From a virus: a DNA stretch of 46,029 nucleotides. Within the stretch, counting starts at the first letter, position 1. Every line of letters starts with the position of its first letter. The notes below the pieces were generated by a model, which saw only the letters and a program-made list of their open reading frames with translations, did no database searches and had not been told where the DNA came from. The stretch lies in IMG/VR virus record IMGVR_UViG_3300017527_000489; one strand, written 5' to 3'. The position numbers were made by a program, and so were the translations under genes. Shown in pieces: positions 3,692-31,481 of the stretch.

Positions 3692-4101
3692 AGATAAGTT
3701 ACCGTTTCATCCAAAAGTAATTTAGTAAAACCTATTTCATCAAGCTTATCTTGAATCTTATTCAAAGTGGATTCTTCAAAGTCCTCATATTGATGCCCGT
3801 TAATACTGTGAACCATAACAGCTAAAGCCATGCCTTTAGGGCTGTATTCTTCTAGTGCATGGTGCAAGGTATTCTCACGGTTTATTAATTCAGTTTCGGC
3901 ACTTTTATAGTCCTCTGCTCTTATGTATCCCAAGCTTCTACCGCCTCGTTTCCTGTAGTCTTCGATACTATCACCTACTCCTAAATCAATCATCAGGAAC
4001 TTATTAAAACGCTGATAACGCCTAATCGTTAGAAGCCTGTCTGAGTCAAAAAACTTAATTATGTGCTTTTGCTTTCCTTGTTTAATTTCTACTTCATGCA
4101 T
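3667..4101 (-). CDS. Tail assembly chaperone (gpG-like)
   Basis: 144 aa, immediately upstream of the tape measure gene. Ends with a slippery A-run and an open -1 frame, the canonical G/GT arrangement. Confidence 0.65.
   Translation of the reverse strand: MHEVEIKQGKQKHIIKFFDSDRLLTIRRYQRFNKFLMIDLGVGDSIEDYRKRGGRSLGYIRAEDYKSAETELINRENTLHHALEEYSPKGMALAVMVHSINGHQYEDFEESTLNKIQDKLDEIGFTKLLLDETVTYLKKKLRKK
3682..3691 (-). other. Slippery A10 run (CUA AAA AAA AAA UUG), candidate programmed -1 ribosomal frameshift site
   Basis: Ten consecutive T on the plus strand. It lies 5 codons before the stop of the 144-aa ORF, and the -1 frame is open to 3341. Confidence 0.6.
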
Positions 4102-4389
4102 TTATGTTAAATATTTCTTTGATAAAGAACTAATCGAAGCGCATAAAAAGCCCCAATATAAATAATTAATATCCCAATGATAGCAGGAATAAGCTATTGC
4201 GCCTATTGTTGCTGTGTGGTTCTCCATGCAAAACTCACATTCACTAACCCCTAATAAGAACCATTTCAAAGGTCGTATTTTTGTGCCATTACCTGCCCCC
4301 TCTAGTATTCGCATCAAGATATTATCTTTGTACAAAATACACATTACCCACCAGAACAGGAGATAAAAAACTATAAATTCTATTATCAT
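4102..4389 (-). CDS. Small Cys-rich membrane protein (accessory gene inside the tail module)
   Basis: 95 aa. N-terminal hydrophobic segment IIEFIVFYLLFWWVMCILY, about 8 Cys. Start is tightly abutted to the chaperone gene. Confidence 0.5.
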   Translation of the reverse strand: MIIEFIVFYLLFWWVMCILYKDNILMRILEGAGNGTKIRPLKWFLLGVSECEFCMENHTATIGAIAYSCYHWDINYLYWGFLCASISSLSKKYLT

Positions 4390-4649
4390 AATATTTTTGG
4401 TTGGTACTTTTTACTTCGCTTTAATTCTACTGCCTCCTTGTGTCTTAATTTTTTGTATTTCTTTAAAAAAGGGTAGCCTTTTTGGTCTTTGTTGTTTATT
4501 TTCAGGATGACCCATTCTTCATCAACAGAGTGACACATACGGTAACTCGTAGCTACTTTTAGCATCTCTTGATAGTTCGGGTCTTTTACTGGTACTTCGT
4601 AATATCTTGTATTGGGCATATTTTCTATGTTGGTACAAAGCCTTGCCAA
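4386..4649 (-). CDS. Hypothetical basic protein (true start probably ATG 4619, MPNTRYYEV...)
   Basis: 87-aa ORF. The annotated start overlaps the upstream gene; the internal ATG at 4619 lies just after that gene's stop (4625). Confidence 0.5.
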   Translation of the reverse strand: MARLCTNIENMPNTRYYEVPVKDPNYQEMLKVATSYRMCHSVDEEWVILKINNKDQKGYPFLKKYKKLRHKEAVELKRSKKYQPKIL

Positions 4650-20831: not shown

Positions 20832-21101
20832 TTATTTCGTTCTTTTAAGTTTATAAAATCGTTTATCCTCAAAGTCTCCAAACTCCGCCACATAGTACCC
20901 TTTTTTCTTGTACGTAGCTAGATGCTCTTTTACGGATTGGAGTTCCTTGGGTGTGTAAATTATCGTTATTGTGCTTTGTTCTCTAATTGTCATAGCTTCT
21001 AAAAATTGTTTTGCTATTGCGCCAACTGGCATCGGTTTATTAAAACGGTGTTTCAGATTCATTTGAAATTCTTTGTTTAAAGTTATCAATATGGTTTGCA
21101 T
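20832..21101 (-). CDS. Hypothetical protein (start probably at internal ATG 21032, MPVGAIAKQF...)
   Basis: 89-aa ORF. The annotated start overlaps dnaB by 62 nt; ATG 21032 lies just after the dnaB stop. Confidence 0.45.
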   Translation of the reverse strand: MQTILITLNKEFQMNLKHRFNKPMPVGAIAKQFLEAMTIREQSTITIIYTPKELQSVKEHLATYKKKGYYVAEFGDFEDKRFYKLKRTK

Positions 21102-22485
21102 TCATATCTTGCATAGTAACCAGTCTCATATCGTACATGTCACAAGTCACTTTGTTGTCTGTATCAAAATCGTAGTCCATGAACTCGGACATTCCCATAT
21201 CAAAAAACAAATAGTCTCTACCTATTTCGCCAAATCGGTTTTTCTTTGTTATCAATGCCGTTACACCTTCTAAGCTTCTGCCTTGTTCGTCCTCTGTTAT
21301 GCCGTAGTACCCTGGTCTGTAAATAAAAGTCACTACTGTCGCATCTTGCTCTATTGCTCCCGAATCCCTCAAGTCTGACAATTGAGGAACTTTAGAACCG
21401 CCTCTGGTTTCTACGGCTCGGCTAAGTTGGCAAAGTGGAATTATTGCAATACGCAAAGCCGATGCAACACCCTTTAACGTTCTTGATATAAATTCAATTT
21501 CCTTATTCCTGTTGCTTTTGGCTTCGCAGTCAATTAGCTGCATGTAGTCAATTACTACAAATTTTATATCGTGGTCTCGCTTTAGTTTGTGAATTTTAGA
21601 CACGATGTAAGTTAATTGAGGGCTTGTGTCGTCAATAAATAATTTAGAATCACTCTCTTTTGATAGTTGGTTGAAAATGTGTTCAATTTGAAGTTCTGAA
21701 ACTTTATTCTTTCTCAAATCTCCAGCAGATACGCCCGACTGTTGGGCTATCAATATCCTGCAAAGTTGCTTTTTACTCATTTCCAAGCTAAAGAACGCCC
21801 CACTATACCCAAATAGTTTTTGTGCGTTTTGTGCCATTTGTAGGGCTAATGTCGTTTTGCCCATAGATGGACGAGCCGCAATTATTATCAATTCCCCATC
21901 AGTTGATAAACCTCCTATTCGCTTGTCGTAACTCTCGAACCCCGTTGGCACTCCTGTTACTTCTTTGAATTTGCCCAAATTATCGCTTATTTCACGTGCT
22001 AGGCTTAACGAAACATCATGAGCCGTATGTTCTTCTTCTATGTGGTTAGATATTGCCTCATTTAGCGTATTTTGCGATTTGCTTATTTCTGTGTCAATAT
22101 TCGTATTCGGGTCAAACGCTGCTTGTGTTAGCTTGTGGTTTGATATTATCGTTTTCCTTCTTACGCTTTTGTCGTGCAGAATCTTGGCGCATCCAGTAAC
22201 ATCTACGTTGAAATGCTTACTTGTAAATTCTGCCATGCCAGCGAAGCCGCCAAGTTCCTCTAATTGCTTTTTGTTTTTTAGTGTATTGCAAATGGTCACT
22301 AAGTCAATATCTAATTTTTTGTTGTGGTGTTCAATTATTGCATTCCAAATATTCTGATGCTTGCTAGTGTAAAAACAATCTTCCGTTAGTAAGTGGATGC
22401 AATTAAATAACCCGTGAGGCACTAGTAGGATGGTGCTAAGTAAAGCCGCTTCAATTTCTGGGGCGTTTGGTAGTTCTTGGTTCAT
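21040..22485 (-). CDS. dnaB: Replicative DNA helicase, DnaB family
   Basis: 481 aa. DnaB N-terminal pattern APEIEAALLSTILL, GVPTGFESYDKRIGGL, and Walker A IIAARPSMGKTTLALQMA. Confidence 0.85.
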   Translation of the reverse strand: MNQELPNAPEIEAALLSTILLVPHGLFNCIHLLTEDCFYTSKHQNIWNAIIEHHNKKLDIDLVTICNTLKNKKQLEELGGFAGMAEFTSKHFNVDVTGCAKILHDKSVRRKTIISNHKLTQAAFDPNTNIDTEISKSQNTLNEAISNHIEEEHTAHDVSLSLAREISDNLGKFKEVTGVPTGFESYDKRIGGLSTDGELIIIAARPSMGKTTLALQMAQNAQKLFGYSGAFFSLEMSKKQLCRILIAQQSGVSAGDLRKNKVSELQIEHIFNQLSKESDSKLFIDDTSPQLTYIVSKIHKLKRDHDIKFVVIDYMQLIDCEAKSNRNKEIEFISRTLKGVASALRIAIIPLCQLSRAVETRGGSKVPQLSDLRDSGAIEQDATVVTFIYRPGYYGITEDEQGRSLEGVTALITKKNRFGEIGRDYLFFDMGMSEFMDYDFDTDNKVTCDMYDMRLVTMQDMNANHIDNFKQRISNESETPF

Positions 22486-23306
22486 GCGTTGCTTGTTTTG
22501 TCGTTAAATGAAAAAGTAGGAATAAACCCGTTTTTGGCTTTTGCTTTTTTATCTCTGTTTTTAGTCCACTTTGGATTCCATGAGACATTCCCTTGTTTTT
22601 CAGTCTCTTGAAATGCTTTTATAATTTCCAATTCGCTGTAGTCGTTGGTGTAACTTTTAATTGCGCTCACTTGGCTGGATATAGTTCCGATAACTCCCCA
22701 ACGGTCTGACTTTTTCGATTCGATGTAACGCCAGAAGCTTAGTATCTCATTTTGGAAGTTATCCGACCAGTCAGAAGGGAACAGCCCAAAGTGAAAGTTT
22801 TTATCTAATTGTGTTGCTCGGACTAGTTCGCCTTTTTGTATTTTTTGAAATTCGCTTATAAGGGGATATTTTTCTTTTCCTTCTTCTCCTTCTTCTTTAT
22901 TCTTTTCATTCTTGTATGTGTCTTTCTGCTGTTCTTCTGTTGTCTTTCTGTTGTCTTTCTGTTGTCCAGTCTGTTGTTCTTTTGCTTGATAAAAGTCGTA
23001 GTTTACTATCGTCAAAACCTGTGTTATTCGGCTTTTCGCTATTTTTATCTGTTGTTCTTTTTCTAGGTCTTTTAGGAATTTTCTTACTTTGGTTCTTGAC
23101 CACTTCCATCTATCGGATAATTCAACTTCTGACCGTCCAACTTGACCACGCCCAACAATAACTTTATTCCCACGCTTGTAGAAAAATGATTCTTTATGAT
23201 TTGCTAATAACAATAAATCAACCCAAGCCTGTCCTCTAGAAAATGGCTCACTGCTCCAAAAATCATTATCTTGAATTGCTCTATGTAATTTTATCCATCC
23301 CTCCAT
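22482..23306 (-). CDS. Putative replication initiator / replisome organiser
   Basis: 274 aa. N-terminal motif WIKLHRAIQDNDFWSSEPFSRGQAWVDLLLLANH is common in phage replication proteins. Charged linker carries DNA repeats. Lies directly upstream of dnaB. Confidence 0.5.
   Translation of the reverse strand: MEGWIKLHRAIQDNDFWSSEPFSRGQAWVDLLLLANHKESFFYKRGNKVIVGRGQVGRSEVELSDRWKWSRTKVRKFLKDLEKEQQIKIAKSRITQVLTIVNYDFYQAKEQQTGQQKDNRKTTEEQQKDTYKNEKNKEEGEEGKEKYPLISEFQKIQKGELVRATQLDKNFHFGLFPSDWSDNFQNEILSFWRYIESKKSDRWGVIGTISSQVSAIKSYTNDYSELEIIKAFQETEKQGNVSWNPKWTKNRDKKAKAKNGFIPTFSFNDKTSNA
22915..22981. repeat. About six imperfect 11-bp tandem repeats (consensus CTGTTGTCTTT), iteron-like, candidate origin
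   Basis: Two perfect units at 22937-22947 and 22948-22958, with degenerate units on both sides. An adjacent T/C-rich tract lies at 22871-22914. All inside the initiator gene linker. Confidence 0.5.
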
Positions 23307-23584
23307 TAGTAGTTGTCTTTTAGTAGGTCACCACGGTACTCGTCCATGAATATTTTACCATTAACTAGTCCTAAATCAAAAATACTATTTAGCTTAATAA
23401 TGGCATTTTCGGCTATCAATGCTTCCTTCTTTGTCTTGTAATATTTTAGGACAATAAAAGTATCAAAATCCTTTTTTAACCCCCTATGTTCCTTTATTCT
23501 TTTAAGTATTCTGCCGCTGGTTGTTACTCCAACGTAGCAGGGCTTTAAGTCTTTTACTAAGCAATAAACTACATATTCTTTCAT
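23306..23584 (-). CDS. GIY-YIG family nuclease (catalytic domain only)
   Basis: 92 aa. YVVYCL..CYVGVT..RIKEHRG..ENAII fits the GIY / YIG / R / E core. No DNA-binding extension. Confidence 0.6.
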   Translation of the reverse strand: MKEYVVYCLVKDLKPCYVGVTTSGRILKRIKEHRGLKKDFDTFIVLKYYKTKKEALIAENAIIKLNSIFDLGLVNGKIFMDEYRGDLLKDNY

Positions 23585-23610
23585 AATTGTTTTTGGTTAG
23601 GGGGTTAAAG
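23579..23610 (-). repeat. Conserved gene-junction motif J1: CTTTAACCCCCTAACCAAAAACAATTATGAAA
   Basis: Matches J2 (24531-24562) at 30 of 32 positions. Spans a stop codon, a 20-nt spacer and the next ATG. Confidence 0.8.
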
Positions 23611-24153
23611 TGATTCTAGCAATTCAAAAACTAACTCCATGTCTGGATTGCGGAAAGCATAATTAAGGTAGTCCGTTGGCTTGTTGTAATGGTAGTGATT
23701 TAATTTTATATGTTCCTTTATTGACTTCTCGGTAAGAAAAGCATTCTTGTATTCGTGTTCTTTAGTCACCCAAATCTCTCTGTACCCAATTTCTTCAAGC
23801 TTACTGGCGTAGTCGTTAGAATCAACTAATTGCGTAGCTAATTCTAATGCTTTTAGCGCAATATGCTCGTCTGAATCATCCTCTAACTCAATATGTTTAG
23901 ACATTTCATCTTCATTCTCATAGAAATAACCCGATAGAAACTCTATTATTTCCTTGTCCTCCCTTAATTCACCTTCCCCATTTTCGTTAATATAAATACA
24001 TTCACCGTTGCCCTCTGTGCTTATTACCTCTTTTTCGCATTGTATTTGATAAAAATAAGGCTTTGCTGTTGCCCTGTTGTCTTGCGTTTTGATTTCGTTG
24101 GATAGGTCTTTTAGTCTTCTGTATAGGTCGTCTGATATTGATATTGTTTTCAT
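23605..24153 (-). CDS. Acidic hypothetical protein
   Basis: 182 aa. My manual count gives roughly 40 D/E against about 20 K/R. The first 173 nt are duplicated in decayed form at 25621-25732. Confidence 0.6.
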   Translation of the reverse strand: MKTISISDDLYRRLKDLSNEIKTQDNRATAKPYFYQIQCEKEVISTEGNGECIYINENGEGELREDKEIIEFLSGYFYENEDEMSKHIELEDDSDEHIALKALELATQLVDSNDYASKLEEIGYREIWVTKEHEYKNAFLTEKSIKEHIKLNHYHYNKPTDYLNYAFRNPDMELVFELLESL

Positions 24154-24164
24154 AATGGTAAGTA

Positions 24165-24248
24165 TTTAAATAGAAAAAGCCTCAAAGGGTATGAATAGTT
24201 TAGGAACGTGCGGACAGATGCACATATACTATTCCCCTTTGAGGCTTT
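24165..24248 (-). terminator. Compound long-stem terminator of leader L2
   Basis: 14-bp stem (24176-24189 with 24235-24248), a 7-bp stem (24193-24199 with 24228-24234) and a 4-bp apical stem, followed by UUCUAUUU. Confidence 0.6.
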
Positions 24249-24322
24249 CACCAACAAATAAGATTTGTTTATTCTGTCCTATGTCAGCATTGTAGTGAGA
24301 GTTCCTAATTCTAACTACTGCC
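24165..24322 (-). ncRNA. Candidate leader RNA or small RNA L2 (about 155 nt, promoter P4 to terminator)
   Basis: A promoter-like motif at 24330-24360 followed by a terminator ending 12-18 nt before ATG 24153. Apical segments are complementary to upstream leader segments. Confidence 0.35.
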
Positions 24323-24329
24323 GTTACCC

Positions 24330-24360
24330 CAAATATACGCAACTTCTCGCAGCTATGCAA
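24330..24360 (-). promoter_or_regulatory. Promoter-like motif P4: TTGCAT-N17-TATATTTG
   Basis: Perfect TAnnTTTG -7 box and TTGC -33 at the 17-nt spacing shared with P1-P3. Starts 2 nt after the stop of the 57-aa ORF. Confidence 0.5.
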
Positions 24361-24362
24361 GT

Positions 24363-24536
24363 TTATGCCAATAACTCTTTTAAATCTTCAACAACTCTTT
24401 GGTAAGTTACCACCTTGGATTCTGCAACATTATACGCTACTGGGTTCTTTAGTGCGTACATCTTCATTGTTTTCTTGTTGAATAATATTTCGATGTTGTA
24501 CGCCTCTATTAAGAGCTGTATTTCTTTCTTTTTCAT
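24363..24536 (-). CDS. Small hypothetical protein (57 aa, below the ORF-track cutoff)
   Basis: Manual translation MKKKEIQLLIEAYNIEILFNKKTMKMYALKNPVAYNVAESKVVTYQRVVEDLKELLA. Preceded by junction motif J2. Confidence 0.45.
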   Translation of the reverse strand: MKKKEIQLLIEAYNIEILFNKKTMKMYALKNPVAYNVAESKVVTYQRVVEDLKELLA

Positions 24537-24562
24537 AATTGATTTTGGTTAGGGGGTTAGAG
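24531..24562 (-). repeat. Conserved gene-junction motif J2: CTCTAACCCCCTAACCAAAATCAATTATGAAA
   Basis: Near-identical to J1. A third partial copy (TAACCCCCAACC) follows the stop at 29623. Confidence 0.8.
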
Positions 24563-25216
24563 TTCAAAATTCAATACCCCTTGTGTTACTTGCTTTGATT
24601 CGTGTACTTTGATAGCTGCGTCTAGTATTGCTTTTCCAGCTACGTAGTCTACCAGGTTACGGGCTATCTTGTTTTTGCGCTGTGTTCCCTTGTAGGATGA
24701 TAGGTCTATTTCGTGGAATTTGCATAATATTTCTAATTCGTTTTTGATATTAGAGCCAACGACACCGCTTTCATTTTCCCTCTTTTTTGTATTGTATGGA
24801 ATTTGAAAGTTTGACCAATAGATATGCCTACCTCGCTTTTGCCCTGGAATAAGTAATTTATAAAACGGTATCACGTTCTCAATGCAAAATAAGCCCTCAA
24901 AATAGTGATGCAAAAGAATTATCTCTTGGTATAGCTTCATATCTGGGTAAGCGTCTTTAAAACTGTCTCTATTTTTCTGCGAGTGTCTAACTCGGCTATG
25001 AGTAGGACAAGGCGGTGAACTCCAAATAAAATCAAACTCTTTGTAATGGTCAAGCAAATACTGATGTGCATCCCCAGCTATTACAGTATCGTTCGGAAAG
25101 CGTTCTTTGTACATTCTCGCTAATTCGGGGTCAAGCTCAACGGCTGTAATTTCGTGACTGTCGCCCCATTTAAAGCGGTTTCCTCCCAAACAGGCGTATA
25201 ATATAAGTATTTTCAT
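24557..25216 (-). CDS. Miniature DNA (cytosine-5) methyltransferase
   Basis: 219 aa. Motif I LYACLGGN, II AVELD, IV SSPPCPTHS, VI CIENV, VIII-like GQKRGR, X-like ARNLVDYVAGKAI. The target-recognition region is very short. Confidence 0.65.
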   Translation of the reverse strand: MKILILYACLGGNRFKWGDSHEITAVELDPELARMYKERFPNDTVIAGDAHQYLLDHYKEFDFIWSSPPCPTHSRVRHSQKNRDSFKDAYPDMKLYQEIILLHHYFEGLFCIENVIPFYKLLIPGQKRGRHIYWSNFQIPYNTKKRENESGVVGSNIKNELEILCKFHEIDLSSYKGTQRKNKIARNLVDYVAGKAILDAAIKVHESKQVTQGVLNFEL

Positions 25217-25252
25217 ATCAAAATAGTTTCATTTGTCGGTTCTCGTAGTTGG

Positions 25253-25501
25253 TTATTTAATTTTGTACAAGCTTAGGGTGTGAGAAACACTACCAAAGAC
25301 ACTAGATTTGCATCCATTATCGTTAGCTAAGGACACGTAATAATTTCCATCAACTAAAGCCATTAGCCAGTTGTTTGTTGATGTATCCTTGTAGAGTTTC
25401 TTTATTCTGCTCACCCCGTTTTTACCTAAATAACTTAAAGCGTTTTCAGTAAACACATGCCCATCTATAGGGATTTCTATTAGCTCTTTCAAATCTTTCA
25501 T
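25253..25501 (-). CDS. Hypothetical protein
   Basis: 82-aa ORF. No motif recognised. Confidence 0.5.
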   Translation of the reverse strand: MKDLKELIEIPIDGHVFTENALSYLGKNGVSRIKKLYKDTSTNNWLMALVDGNYYVSLANDNGCKSSVFGSVSHTLSLYKIK

Positions 25502-25520
25502 AACTATTTATTAAGGCGTA

Positions 25521-25732
25521 TTAGTAAATGTCTTTTAATACAATTGAGAATTGAGATGCGTTCTTGTAAACCTCCTTAATGCATTTTGTATCTAAATTTT
25601 CTCTATCGCTCCAGTCCTCGTTTTCGTCAATATAAATACATTCACCGTTGCCCTGTTGTCTTGCGTTTTGATTTCGTTGGATAGGTCTTTTAGTCTTCTG
25701 TATAGGTCGTCTGATATTGATATTGTTTTCAT
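25521..25732 (-). pseudogene. Frameshifted remnant of a paralogue of the 182-aa acidic protein gene
   Basis: 25621-25732 equals 23981-24153 with 1 substitution and a 61-nt deletion between two GTTGCCCT copies. ATG at 25732. The original frame stays open to TAA at 25521-25523. Confidence 0.7.
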
Positions 25733-25792
25733 GATTGTTATTTTAAAAGTTAATTAATTTCAAGTCGCAAAGCAGAACCTTTCGGAACGCTG

Positions 25793-27997
25793 CTAGAATA
25801 GGGTTTTTTGTCGTTCCTCAATAATAGCATCTCTATGGTTTTTTTTATTCAAGTTAAAATAACTCTCTTTTAACTCAATAGATACACTCTTTCTCTTCAT
25901 CTTCAAAGCAGTATAACCTTCTGACCCTATGCCCCCAAATGGACTAAAAACAGTATCTCCCTCGTTGCTATACAAGTGCAAAATGCGCTCAATAGTATCT
26001 AATTGTAAAGGGCAAATGTGTTTTTCATCATTCCCATCTCTAGCACTTCTATATTGCAACGTTCTTCTATAGTCTACATCCATCCAAACTGGAGATGCGT
26101 ATTTTTGCCACAAATCTACTGGCAAATAGTCGGGCTTGGTAAAATCATCCGCTTGATGTGTGATAGGCGTTTCGTTATCGCCTTCGTTTCTAAAGAACAA
26201 AACATAGTCAGGTATTCCAACTCTAGACATTACGCTATCCTTTTTTATAGTCTTATGGAGCAAACCAAGAGCCTTAGTTCTTTGCATTTCTGTTACTGGG
26301 TTCTTCCATATCGTAACCCGTGAATGATAAATAAAGCCCTGTTCTATAAACCAATTTATAAGCATTCCGCTAAAGTCTCTTAACCCGATAAACCCTTCTT
26401 TTCCTTTTTGAATAGGCAAATCCATACAATGAACCGCACATATTCTACCAGCCTTTAAAACTCTTTTGATTTGTGGAATCAAGTATTTAAAGTGATGCTC
26501 AAATTCCTTGTAATTCTTTACATTCCCCATATCCGCAGCCTTATCGCTATAAACATACAGCTCTGCAAAAGGAGGACTAAAAACGCATACATCAACACTA
26601 TTAGCTGGTAGACTTTTAGATGCTTCTACGCAATCCCCGTTAATTATGTGGTATCTATCGTTTTTTACTTCTTTTGTATCAACTACTGCCCCTTTTGAAG
26701 ACTTGTAATTATGCTCTGCGCTGTATTTTGCCATTTCTCCAATCATTTCTTTATGTTTTCCTTCTTTTTCTAAAATAGTTCTTCTTACGTTCGTTTGTGA
26801 TTCTGGAATAAGTATGTGAACTTTTACCTTTTTAGTTTGTCCGAACCTATAACAACGCCTAACAGCTTGATAAAAAGCCTCAAATTTGAAGTCGTACGAA
26901 CAAAAAACCATATTGCAGCAGTTTTGGTAATTCATCCCGAAACTAGCGATTGATGTTTTTGTTACTAGTACTCTAAACTCATTATCTGCAAACCCTAATA
27001 ACCTATCAGCCTTTGTTTGTGGTTTGTCACTACCTTGTACATTAACAGCATCATCAATGCTTCTTGATAGGAGGTCGGTTTCTTTGTTCTGTAAGCCCCA
27101 AACTATCCATTGTTCATTGTTTGAATTAACTAGTTCTGTCGCCAATTTTACCCTATCAGCCATTGAACGCCTTAAATCTTTATTCAAATCAGTTGCAGAT
27201 ACCGCAGCAGTAACAAATAAAGTATTAGTATTATTCTCTACGGGTATAATGTGTTCGATATACTCTATTTCTGGCAGGTCGTACCCTTCCATGTTATACC
27301 CTAAAGTACTAGGCTTATCTATAGATATAGACCATGTACATACAAACTTCCAAAAGTCATCTTTTGCATGCTTTCTTAGTCTCCATTTAGAAGTCTGCCC
27401 ACCATCATGAACAAAATACATAGCTAACATTTCTAAGTAACTCATAGCCCCTAAAAATTGGGCATGTTGTCCTAGTTCCATGTGGTCGTTTGGTGATGGT
27501 GTCGCTGTACATGCGAGTCTATACGGGGTTTGCTGGAATGACTCTATGATAAGTCTGCTTAGTTTTCCATCCCTTCCTTTTAAGATACTAGATTCGTCTA
27601 ATACAACACCCCCAAAGATAGAAGCATCTATATTCTTTAACTGGTCGTAATTTGTTATGTATATCCCATCCAAAGAATCATCGTTTCCGTTTTCGTATCT
27701 TGATATATTTATGCCAAATTTGACCCCTTCATTAATTGTTTGTTGAACTACTGCCAACGGGGATAATATCAAAACAGGTTTTTTTGTCTCAAATGCAACT
27801 TGCTCCGACCATGCTAAGAATTGAATAGTTTTACCTAGTCCGCAATCTTCAAACAATGCAAACCTACCTTTTTTGCATGCTAATTTTACTACATGCTTTT
27901 GATATTCGTATAAGTTTTGATTTAAGTCTTTAGCCTCGAATCCGCAAGCGATAAAACTCTTTTCTTTTGTCTTTAAAAACTCCTGATAATTATTCAT
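25793..27997 (-). CDS. SNF2-family helicase fused to an N6/N4 DNA methyltransferase (beta-class motif order)
   Basis: 734 aa. Helicase motifs DCGLGKT, VLDESS, CTATPSPND, QAVRRCYRFGQ. Methylase motifs DVCVFSPPF (IV) then VFSPFGGIGSEG (I). Confidence 0.85.
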   Translation of the reverse strand: MNNYQEFLKTKEKSFIACGFEAKDLNQNLYEYQKHVVKLACKKGRFALFEDCGLGKTIQFLAWSEQVAFETKKPVLILSPLAVVQQTINEGVKFGINISRYENGNDDSLDGIYITNYDQLKNIDASIFGGVVLDESSILKGRDGKLSRLIIESFQQTPYRLACTATPSPNDHMELGQHAQFLGAMSYLEMLAMYFVHDGGQTSKWRLRKHAKDDFWKFVCTWSISIDKPSTLGYNMEGYDLPEIEYIEHIIPVENNTNTLFVTAAVSATDLNKDLRRSMADRVKLATELVNSNNEQWIVWGLQNKETDLLSRSIDDAVNVQGSDKPQTKADRLLGFADNEFRVLVTKTSIASFGMNYQNCCNMVFCSYDFKFEAFYQAVRRCYRFGQTKKVKVHILIPESQTNVRRTILEKEGKHKEMIGEMAKYSAEHNYKSSKGAVVDTKEVKNDRYHIINGDCVEASKSLPANSVDVCVFSPPFAELYVYSDKAADMGNVKNYKEFEHHFKYLIPQIKRVLKAGRICAVHCMDLPIQKGKEGFIGLRDFSGMLINWFIEQGFIYHSRVTIWKNPVTEMQRTKALGLLHKTIKKDSVMSRVGIPDYVLFFRNEGDNETPITHQADDFTKPDYLPVDLWQKYASPVWMDVDYRRTLQYRSARDGNDEKHICPLQLDTIERILHLYSNEGDTVFSPFGGIGSEGYTALKMKRKSVSIELKESYFNLNKKNHRDAIIEERQKTLF

Positions 27998-28010: not shown

Positions 28011-28106
28011 AAATAAAAAAGCCCGTTTCAAAAGTAATTAATTGGCTTGGTGAGCATTGTCTATACACATCGAAAAGACAGCAATTAATTACCCTTGAAA
28101 CGGGCT
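28011..28106 (-). terminator. Compound long-stem terminator of leader L3
   Basis: 12-bp stem (28020-28031 with 28095-28106), a 10-11-bp stem (28035-28044 with 28082-28091) and a 5-bp apical stem (28058-28062 with 28076-28080), then UUUUUAUUU. Confidence 0.6.
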
Positions 28107-28152
28107 ATTAAATATTTTATTGATGTGTTATTTGCTTAGAGTACCACCTCAT
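28011..28152 (-). ncRNA. Candidate leader RNA or small RNA L3 (about 140 nt)
   Basis: TATCTTTG box at 28160-28167, then the structured element and U-tract. The 13-nt apical loop carries 10 nt complementary to -12..-3 of the downstream AUG. Confidence 0.4.
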
Positions 28153-28201: not shown

Positions 28202-28666
28202 CTATTTATTCAATTGTTCCAACCCGTACTTTTTGATAATGCTATTTATCTTAGCACGGTAGGATTTGGAAGTGAAATAATGGCACTCTTGGAGGGCATA
28301 AAGCCATCCTTTAGTGGTTTTCGGGTTTAAGCCTTTGTAACAGCCCTGATTTAACACTTTTGCCCACTTCTCGAAGCAAGCAACACGGCTCTCAAACTCC
28401 TGATACTGTCCGCTTTTCTTGATGCCTAACCAATTGCACTTATTGATACAAAGATTTGACGTACCCCATCCACTTTCTAGTGCTGCCTGTGCTATTAGGA
28501 GCGATACTGGCAGCCCGTTCTTGTCGCAGACGTGTTTTGAATCATCGTAGATATTGTTGATAAATAGGCTTACTCGCTTGTTGTCGATGTTCCGTAGACA
28601 ATTTGCCCTGTCTTTGTCCGTGCTTAGTAAGCAGAAGGCTATAAGGGCTATTATTATTCGTTTCAT
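28202..28666 (-). CDS. Endolysin, GH73-like N-acetylglucosaminidase with an N-terminal signal or anchor sequence
   Basis: 154 aa. The LLIAQAALESGWGTS motif is typical of the glucosaminidase (FlgJ/GH73) family. Hydrophobic N-terminus MKRIIIALIAFCLL. Confidence 0.7.
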   Translation of the reverse strand: MKRIIIALIAFCLLSTDKDRANCLRNIDNKRVSLFINNIYDDSKHVCDKNGLPVSLLIAQAALESGWGTSNLCINKCNWLGIKKSGQYQEFESRVACFEKWAKVLNQGCYKGLNPKTTKGWLYALQECHYFTSKSYRAKINSIIKKYGLEQLNK

Positions 28667-31402: not shown

Positions 31403-31435
31403 CAAAGATAATATTTTTTCTTGGAAATACAATCT
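31403..31435 (-). promoter_or_regulatory. Leftward early promoter-like motif P1': ATTGTA..TATCTTTG
   Basis: Perfect TAnnTTTG box (plus-strand CAAAGATA, 31403-31410) with a TTG about 19 nt upstream. Confidence 0.45.
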
Positions 31436-31438
31436 TTT

Positions 31439-31481
31439 TTGCAATAAAGTTTGCAACTTCCAAAACTAAATTATATCTTTG
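31439..31481 (+). promoter_or_regulatory. Rightward early promoter-like motif P1: TTGCAA-N6-TTGCAA-N17-TATCTTTG
   Basis: TTGCAA at 31439-31444 and 31451-31456, -7 box at 31474-31481. Lies 40 nt upstream of ATG 31522. Confidence 0.55.

Follow-up and report, generated by a model that had tools for sequence, protein, structure and literature searches.

Why a bacteriophage should carry an SNF2-type helicase and a DNA methylase in one polypeptide, and whether the small genes that follow belong to the same system, is the question raised by a stretch of the viral record IMGVR_UViG_3300017527_000489. The whole record, 46 029 nucleotides (nt) long, was analysed and is referred to here as the window. 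A first-pass annotation, made from the letters alone, had singled out four genes, encoding an SNF2::methylase fusion, a C5-methylase-like protein, a strongly acidic protein and a GIY-YIG nuclease, and had described them as a methylase and nuclease island. The Pfam and PHROG matches obtained here agree with the domain assignments of the four genes, and methylation that counteracts restriction is the most reasonable role. We infer, solely from sequence, that the phage probably protects its own DNA from host restriction by methylating it, methylation being tied by the SNF2 motor to tracking along the DNA. As judged by comparison with related loci, the region is a mosaic stretch of an early replication operon and not a single integrated system, and the window adds new members of known families, not a new kind of system.

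The fusion gene (25793–27997, minus strand) encodes 734 amino acids. Pfam matches were obtained to SNF2-rel_dom (residues 47–185), Helicase_C (288–386) and N6_N4_Mtase (PF01555; 468–718), giving a layout in which an SNF2-family ATPase at about residues 25–400 is followed by a beta-class N6/N4 amino-methyltransferase at about residues 450–720. The translation contains all of the motifs on which the earlier assignment was based, namely DCGLGKT, DESS, TATP, QAVRRCYRFGQ, SPPF and FGGIGSEG, so that a single polypeptide joining an SNF2 core to a beta-class amino-methyltransferase is confirmed; motif IV (SPPF) precedes motif I (FGGIGS), which is the beta-class order. In 30 homologues with identities down to 36%, the ATPase residues Gly53, Gly55 and Lys56 of Walker A, Asp134 and Glu135 of the DExx motif, Thr166 and Pro167 of motif III and Gln377, Arg381 and Arg384 of motif VI are invariant, as are the methylase residues Ser474, Pro476 and Phe477 of SPPF and Phe687 and Gly689 of motif I. 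Because both active sites are invariant in these homologues, both activities appear to be under selection; the fusion would be predicted to combine ATP-dependent DNA translocation with DNA methylation. The nearest solved methylase is Thermus TTHA0409 (PDB entry 2zie; E = 3e-12), which has SPPY at the corresponding position, and by the classical motif rule the SPPF of the fusion favours N4-cytosine as the methylated base, with N6-adenine also possible. The region between motif VIII and motif I, where recognition would be expected to reside, shows a conservation of 0.55, compared with 0.59–0.60 in the catalytic segments; a recognition region as conserved as the catalytic parts suggests that the family has a single common specificity or a relaxed one, and does not consist of many enzymes each with its own target sequence.

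The compact SNF2::methylase had been taken for a new layout, a view that the family searches do not bear out, since it ranks among the most frequent helicase families of phages. PHROG 16, annotated as `DNA helicase', aligned to residues 24–734 of the fusion (E = 1.6e-86), and tblastn returned matches in 341 of 50 697 phage records, 306 of which cover at least 80% of the protein; the matching records include 147 Mycobacterium, 85 Flavobacterium, 27 Arthrobacter and 23 Pseudomonas phages. Some of the records label the gene `DNA helicase/methylase' or `DNA helicase/methyltransferase fusion protein', and in others the same stretch is annotated as adjoining helicase and methylase genes. The hosts of the records in which the two are fused or adjoining comprise Actinobacteria, Pseudomonas, Flavobacterium and Clostridium, and this recurrence across distant hosts argues for a functional coupling of helicase and methylase. 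Among 1.84 billion representative proteins, the homologues with E ≤ 1e-30 form at least 1113 clusters at 50% identity, and at least 34 of the best 150 cluster representatives align to the fusion from end to end in a single stretch, the layout being stable at 720–800 amino acids. It has been reported that SWI2/SNF2 ATPases are widely coupled to methylases in phages, either in the same polypeptide or in conserved neighbourhoods, and translocation-linked methylation has been proposed by analogy with DarB and the type III restriction–modification enzymes (Iyer et al. 2017, PMC5512222). The architecture has therefore already been annotated and discussed in comparative genomics; as for a functional description, no experimental study of the compact, helicase-first helicase–methylase fusion family was found in the literature. 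Some fusion homologues are longer, at about 3.4 kb or about 1060–1130 amino acids, and align in two pieces (for example in Mycobacterium phages Dante, Veteran and Job42); some of these are labelled `anaerobic ribonucleoside reductase large subunit', and from their alignments they look as though they carry an inserted element, either an intein or an extra domain.

Several features of the fusion and of its family would also suit an SNF2 half that is mainly a replication or recombination motor, acting in fork remodelling or strand annealing, with a methylase that is tethered to it or fused by chance adjacency and that methylates non-processively. The gene lies in a replication module near a DnaD-like loader and DnaB, PHROG 16 and PHROG 62 are labelled simply as DNA helicases, many of the top representatives in the fusion search are helicase-only proteins of about 460 amino acids, and other phages (H81, H82 and H84) encode SNF2 helicases without a methylase. 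Nevertheless, the fusion or adjacency recurs in very distant hosts with both active sites kept, the linker between the two halves is short and the layout of 720–800 amino acids persists through the end-to-end clusters described above, and we consider a motor devoted mainly to replication to be possible but unlikely.

Upstream of the fusion gene on the minus strand lies a long RNA hairpin with a U-run (28017–28109), which was detected as an inverted repeat and by folding. Its 25 pairs join positions 28109–28082 with 28044–28017 around a 37-nt loop containing a small inner stem, and are followed by UUUUUUAUUU; about 20 nt separate the end of the hairpin from the fusion ATG. No other local inverted repeat of the 46-kb window is as strong, and the 204-nt leader spacer folds at −50.3 kcal/mol (z = −5.79). 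When the fusion neighbourhoods were compared across 64 related viral loci, the closest relative was locus L011, with a fusion of 89% protein identity, and L011 (5640–5745) keeps the leader hairpin with seven substitutions in the arms, pairing being preserved at every one of them. The changes comprise two double compensatory ones (U:A to A:U and A:U to G:C), two from G:U to G:C and one from G:C to G:U; since G:U pairs are feasible on the sense strand only, the changes point to a leader structure that acts as RNA.

The hairpin looks terminator-like or attenuator-like. The sequence ACACAUC, with which GAUGUGU of the loop can pair, occurs both before the hairpin and immediately ahead of the start codon, and with the two leaders at hand it is conceivable that the leader is an attenuator or a start-site-masking switch with alternative structures; it could represent a new cis-regulatory RNA that controls expression of the methylase. 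The leaders matched no Rfam family at gathering thresholds, relaxed thresholds yielding only miRNA-hairpin noise, and they contained no tRNA. Pattern scans of IMG/VR for further leader homologues returned L011 only, and a metagenome scan returned the contig of L011 itself together with unrelated coding sequences that share a 19-mer by chance. Unrelated large hairpins with T-runs occur at the matching position in L019, L022, L024, L031 and L036, and most other fusion homologues are without any. In L045 and L046 the sequence preceding the fusion includes a stretch that resembles a tRNA, which ARAGORN did not confirm.

The same comparison answers the question of whether the four genes form one unit. 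DNA homology between the window and L011, as determined by blastn, extends from 28159 to 25815 only, that is, over a 160-nt leader and the fusion gene. The genes upstream of it are different in L011, and downstream there are three unrelated small open reading frames (ORFs) followed by a GIY-YIG homologue (73% identity over 41 amino acids, 1.1 kb downstream of the fusion), with neither an acidic nor a C5 gene. What the two have in common is limited to the leader, the fusion and the GIY-YIG gene, and the leader travels together with the fusion gene in two phages with different flanking genes. The Flavobacterium columnare phage Ficleduovirus FCV-1 shares the fusion alone from this neighbourhood, and in five contigs the neighbours of the C5 homologues differ, none being conserved beside them. 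The proposal of a coherent island thus does not survive the comparison.

A further trace of mosaicism was found between the fusion and the acidic gene. Two direct repeats connect the 5′ end of the acidic gene with the region just downstream of the fusion: positions 24068–24159, spanning from 6 nt upstream of the acidic ATG to codon 29, recur at 25647–25738 (92 nt, 98% identity), and positions 23975–24014 recur at 25615–25654 (40 nt, 93% identity). The element at 25615–25738 on the minus strand is therefore a pseudo-copy of the acidic gene's beginning, shortened and out of frame, corresponding to the first 180 nt or so of that gene minus 61 nt that were deleted between two 8-nt microhomologies, GTTGCCCT; it could still encode a 46-residue peptide starting at 25731. 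The first-pass annotation had also spoken of two separately regulated structured leaders. The structured element at 28017–28109 before the fusion stands, whereas the 290-nt gap at 25502–25792 proved to be the acidic-gene pseudo-copy, and separate regulation is a supposition.

Between the repeats lies a cassette of about 1.5 kb that comprises orf82 (25253–25501, 82 amino acids, the first gene of the cassette), the C5 gene, orf57 (24363–24536, 57 amino acids) and a hairpin with a U-run, all on the minus strand; the two small ORFs, which were taken from the ORF list, are absent from the earlier account, and orf82 has only a weak PHROG 37285 match. Because the cassette is bracketed by direct repeats, a recent recombination that brought it in is indicated, and the C5 cassette looks like a recent insertion, with the pseudo-copy as its recombination scar. 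The hairpin (24176–24248), detected as an inverted repeat and by folding, has perfect 14-nt arms and a 45-nt loop, and closes the cassette 22 nt upstream of the acidic ATG; the 209-nt spacer that holds it folds at −62.3 kcal/mol (z = −4.45), and it looks like a terminator. Gene boundaries in the region carry another repeat: an identical 26-nt stop-to-start junction, TAACCCCCTAACCAAAANCAATTATG, is present at 23582–23607, after the acidic gene and before the GIY-YIG gene, and at 24534–24559, after the C5 gene and before orf57, and nowhere else, with zero occurrences expected by chance, and the similarity extends to 33 nt at 94% identity. The junction may reflect recombination at gene boundaries or a shared translation-initiation region. 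Either of the small ORFs might have served as a recognition subunit for the C5-like protein in the manner of M.AquI or M.EcoHK31I; this candidate was rejected, as neither adjoins the C5 homologues in the five other contigs.

The C5-methylase-like protein itself (24557–25216, minus strand, 219 amino acids) had been described as having the core motifs and almost no target-recognition domain, and both parts of that description are upheld. PF00145 matches over residues 4–115 only (29.8 bits against a cut-off of 22), and the match stops at profile position 111 of 324. Motifs I (LYACLGG), II (AVELD), IV (SSPPCPTHS), VI (ENV) and VIII (QKRGRH) and a motif X-like RNLVD are invariant in 25 homologues, and only about 50 residues separate motifs VIII and X, which leaves the protein without a target-recognition domain and motif IX. 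In the AlphaFold2 (AF2) model (pLDDT 83.7), the recognition region is reduced to one short helix and a low-confidence loop.

The family of this mini-C5 protein, whose members have about 215 amino acids, is very large. Its homologues form at least 8000 clusters. The best 120 of these all have lengths of 210–243 amino acids and originate from metagenomes, among them freshwater and marine (Tara) ones. Among isolated viruses, homologues are present in phages of Flavobacterium, Gordonia and Vibrio and in a spindle-shaped virus of Nitrosopumilaceae. The mini-C5 gene adjoins a fusion homologue in L036, L040 and L041, and in the L036/L041 lineage, where mini-C5 is the C-terminal half of a longer ORF (L036 3799–5112, 437 amino acids; L041 59–1102, 347 amino acids called), the long C5 ORF lies about 900 nt upstream of the fusion homologue. 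In L036 the N-terminal half matches PHROG 757 (E = 2.8e-22) and forms another kind of small methylase-like domain, whose Pro-Cys and ENP motifs are in register, and these tandem domains make a paired mode of action plausible for mini-C5. In Flavobacterium phage stinky9-1 (L090, MN812238.1; 1872–4460), a mini-C5 homologue lies between two N6_N4 methylases, all of them annotated. The arrangements in stinky9-1, L036, L040 and L041 indicate that methylase clusters with mini-C5 recur. Small C5-type methylases are already annotated families, and no experimental work on C5 methylases lacking a target-recognition domain was found in the literature. We entertain, as a rather doubtful generalization, that the family constitutes a minimal cytosine-modifying enzyme without a recognition domain, which could work as a dimer or tandem of little or no sequence specificity, or could use a non-canonical substrate or cofactor, such as tRNA or an S-adenosylmethionine (SAM) analogue.

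The structural comparisons bear on a related but distinct possibility, namely that the C5-like enzyme is not an ordinary DNA 5-methylcytosine (m5C) methyltransferase at all, and either modifies RNA or tRNA as DNMT2 does or catalyses a carboxy-SAM (Cx-SAM)-dependent transfer like that of CmoX. PDB sequence matches were to DNMT2 tRNA methyltransferases only, and DNMT2 is also the best fold match; the fold matches include DNMT2, DNMT1/MET1 and M.HaeIII, over about 120–160 residues, and the scores of DNMT1, MET1 and M.HaeIII nearly equal that of DNMT2, which speaks against this possibility. The SPPC form of motif IV is shared with DNMT2 and CmoX, Arg186 and Asn187 are invariant in the motif X region, and a classical DNA-recognition domain would not fit into so small a recognition region. 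In CmoX an arginine replaces Asn304 of M.HhaI and binds the carboxymethyl group, and C5-methylase homologues with SPPC and an arginine in motif X can transfer carboxymethyl (PMC12783734). The motif X of the window protein reads Ala-Arg-Asn-Leu-Val, and thus retains the asparagine beside the arginine, so that its register against Asn304 is ambiguous; an hhalign alignment to M.HhaI covered motifs I–IV only. Furthermore, the mini-C5 family profile failed to retrieve the CmoX structure 8YF3 even with the threshold relaxed to E ≤ 10, the window contains no recognizable gene for a ligase or for CmoA, the Cx-SAM synthase, and the C5-like genes cluster with DNA methylases in other phages. An RNA substrate or carboxymethyl transfer is improbable in our estimation, and a DNA substrate is assumed in what follows.

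The acidic protein (23605–24153, minus strand, 182 amino acids) is indeed strongly acidic, with a net charge of −20 and an isoelectric point of 4.61. It belongs to PHROG 3205 (E = 3e-20), which carries no function annotation, and a profile search found 376 homologue clusters; homologues occur in Bacillus SPbeta-like and SPO1-like phages, in Listeria A500 (gp53) and in Fusobacterium phages. The AF2 model (pLDDT 96.4) shows a conserved alpha/beta core, for which no fold match was found in the PDB (best E = 2.2), and the matches in BFVD are all uncharacterised phage proteins. The N-terminal and C-terminal segments are conserved (0.63 and 0.57, respectively), with the middle segment at 0.29; this segment is negatively charged in all 53 members compared (−5 to −25, median −13; the whole-protein family median is −14), and being variable yet always acidic it suggests that acidity itself is selected. 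A known anti-defence protein was sought and rejected, as there was no Pfam, NCBIfam or PADLOC match and no PDB fold match. In Bacillus phage SPbetaL1 (L005), the acidic homologue (3980–4507) lies 3.5 kb upstream of the anti-Gabija gene Gad1 (8057+), among small hypothetical genes.

Such a charge had prompted the speculation of DNA mimicry, in which the protein would block restriction, BREX or other DNA-binding defence proteins as Ocr and ArdA do. The net charge, the acidity of the poorly conserved middle segment throughout the family and the early position of the gene are all compatible with a mimic, and the proximity to Gad1 in SPbetaL1 is a weak hint of anti-defence. The protein nevertheless resembles neither Ocr nor ArdA nor any solved structure in sequence or fold, its gene has no conserved neighbour, and the invariant core residues Gln24, Arg27, Thr29, Asn137, Phe139, Thr141, His148, Asn152, Arg168 and Asn169 point to a specific binding or catalytic site rather than a decoy. 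A DNA mimic seems to us possible but improbable.

The GIY-YIG protein (23306–23584, minus strand, 92 amino acids; PHROG 314) is a bare catalytic domain, as had been proposed: PF01541 matches residues 4–66 (E = 2.8e-6, 28 bits against a cut-off of 22.6), and the chain ends at residue 92, where a homing endonuclease would continue through a linker into a C-terminal DNA-binding domain (NUMOD, zinc finger or helix–turn–helix). Its gene shares 1 nt with the DnaD-like loader gene that follows, the stop codon of the one meeting the start of the other. As a nuclease it may be structure-specific or non-specific, or it may be what is left of a homing endonuclease after decay. T4 endonuclease II spares the hydroxymethylated DNA of T4, and by a similar logic the two methylases could mark the phage DNA while the GIY-YIG nuclease degrades unmodified host DNA during host takeover. 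The absence of a targeting domain would fit a low sequence specificity, and a GIY-YIG gene lies downstream of the fusion in both the window and L011. Against this, a GIY-YIG gene is found near the fusion in only one of the 64 related loci, tblastn detected no homologue in isolated phages, nothing indicates methylation sensitivity, and the PHROG 314 assignment leaves room for a homing-endonuclease remnant. We consider marking followed by host-DNA degradation very unlikely.

Self-methylation coupled to a motor remains the reading that we prefer. The analysis establishes the gene structures, domain identities, motif conservation, family sizes, duplication scar and conserved leader hairpin; in the scheme that follows we infer the substrates and the processivity, along with protection against restriction and what the acidic protein does. 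The SNF2-type ATPase would most likely track along phage DNA or replication forks, carrying the beta-class methylase with it, so that new phage DNA could be methylated quickly and evenly before host restriction enzymes cut it. The mini-C5 protein, with its catalytic motifs intact, would have arrived on the 1.5-kb cassette through a recent recombination that duplicated the start of the acidic gene; it would probably place m5C within a short or relaxed motif, perhaps acting as a dimer, and thereby provide a second protective layer. The acidic protein would be an accessory protein in which a conserved folded core carries a surface segment of polyanionic character, and it is a candidate for inhibiting some defence protein of the host that binds DNA. 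The GIY-YIG protein would contribute a nuclease domain without a targeting module.

Several observations weigh against this scheme. Phage replication modules often include SNF2 helicases that have no methylase, and the ATPase may serve replication instead. The SPPF motif is merely a statistical indicator of N4-cytosine methylation, and TTHA0409 is listed only as a putative modification methylase. For the C5-like protein, the restriction of the PF00145 match to the N-terminal half and the best PDB sequence matches being to DNMT2 mean that a DNA substrate is assumed. The terminator-like hairpin directly before the fusion ATG raises the question of how the fusion is expressed. Finally, as far as our searches reached, the literature holds no methylation or restriction data for this phage or for any member of the fusion family.

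In the window as a whole, the minus strand carries an unbroken series of genes, among which the ORF list places all four of those first noted at the coordinates originally assigned to them. The order of transcription is a glucosaminidase-like gene, the fusion, orf82, the C5-like gene, orf57, the acidic gene, the GIY-YIG gene, a DnaD-like helicase loader (22482–23306, minus strand; PHROG 2514 and 186) and a DnaB-type replicative helicase (21040–22485, minus strand; DnaB motifs in the ORF translation). With the loader and the replicative helicase directly downstream, the supposed island sits within an early replication operon. The glucosaminidase-like gene (28202–28666, minus strand; PF01832, 154 amino acids) encodes a hydrophobic, signal-like N-terminal segment and immediately precedes the fusion leader within this early operon; L011 has no such gene at the corresponding position. 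Inside the loader gene, three tandem 11-nt repeats (TGTCTTTCTGY...; 22919–22962) encode a low-complexity linker rich in Gln, Lys and Glu. An inverted repeat with 24-nt arms (31403–31481) separates the leftward early/replication operon from a divergent rightward operon (Rad52-like, YopX), and is likely to be an operator or promoter control region. A scan for sigma-70 promoters and simple terminators did not exceed the shuffled expectation, and inspection by eye for Bacteroidetes-type TAnnTTTG boxes gave no consistent promoter.

Elsewhere the window encodes a portal protein, a large terminase subunit, tail proteins, a Rad52-like recombinase and an HNH endonuclease. The closest relatives of the portal protein are those of Flavobacterium (F. 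psychrophilum) and Bacteroides phages, at 33% identity, and the isolated-phage records contain no DNA nearly identical to the window. On this evidence, the window is from a new tailed phage of a Bacteroidota (Flavobacteriia-type) host.

Phage methylases help to set host range and are thus relevant to phage therapy, including that directed against fish-pathogenic Flavobacterium. If the SNF2 motor speeds up methylation or makes it processive, the fusion of the two activities in hundreds of phages would be accounted for, and motor-coupled methylation, if true, would be a bacterial counterpart of the link between chromatin remodellers and DNA methylation in eukaryotes. Should the mini-C5 family prove to be a minimal cytosine-modifying enzyme, it would reveal a widespread, overlooked modification of nucleic acids by phages. 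The remaining interest of the locus lies in a very common fusion for which no experiments were found, in the huge mini-C5 family and in an acidic PHROG 3205 protein that matches no solved structure; the mini-C5 and PHROG 3205 proteins are abundant and cheap to express.

Each of the four proteins can be set beside known systems. DNMT3A, M.AquI and M.EcoHK31I are C5 enzymes with a small recognition domain or a split chain. The mini-C5 protein shares with the classical enzymes M.HhaI and M.HaeIII the motifs I, IV (Pro-Cys), VI (ENV) and VIII (QxRxR), a motif X-like helix and a Rossmann-type domain, but it has 219 amino acids instead of 310–400, about 50 residues replace the recognition domain and motif IX, motif IV reads SPPCP instead of GxPCQ and motif X reads RN instead of GN, and no conserved partner subunit adjoins it. 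Ocr (T7 gp0.3) and ArdA are, like the acidic protein, small, early and strongly acidic phage or plasmid proteins; the protein of the window differs from them in its conserved alpha/beta core, in its invariant polar residues and in the confinement of its acidity to the variable middle segment. The GIY-YIG protein has in common with the N-terminal domain of I-TevI, T4 Seg, T4 endonuclease II and the stand-alone YhbQ-type domains of bacteria a GIY-YIG core of about 90 residues, and differs from the homing endonucleases in being without their linker and DNA-binding domain; its similarity to characterised members is low.

The fusion shares with the PHROG 16 phage proteins the order of SNF2 ATPase and then beta-class methylase, a length of 720–800 amino acids and the same invariant motifs. 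It aligns from end to end with the FCV-1 protein ASD52460.1 at 70.7% identity, and with the actinophage proteins Arthrobacter Auxilium gp73, Mycobacterium Girr gp64 and Zerg gp66 the identity is 27–38%. No structural difference from these proteins was seen; the window copy differs in being preceded by a conserved hairpin leader of its own, whereas the fusion gene of FCV-1 has no such leader and overlaps its upstream neighbour. DarB of phage P1, which is about three times larger than the fusion, offers the other comparison. The DarB dyad of polyvalent proteins likewise combines a DNA methylase and a SWI2/SNF2-clade ATPase in one polypeptide, and DarB has a demonstrated anti-restriction role and is packaged in the virion (PMC5512222). 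In that dyad, however, the methylase comes first, is a gamma-class, EcoKI/TaqI-like adenine methylase with an NPP(Y/F) motif, and is accompanied by an N-terminal LPD36 domain (PMC5512222), whereas the fusion of the window has the helicase first and a beta-class SPPF methylase in 734 amino acids encoded in an early replication operon, and is not of the DarB type.

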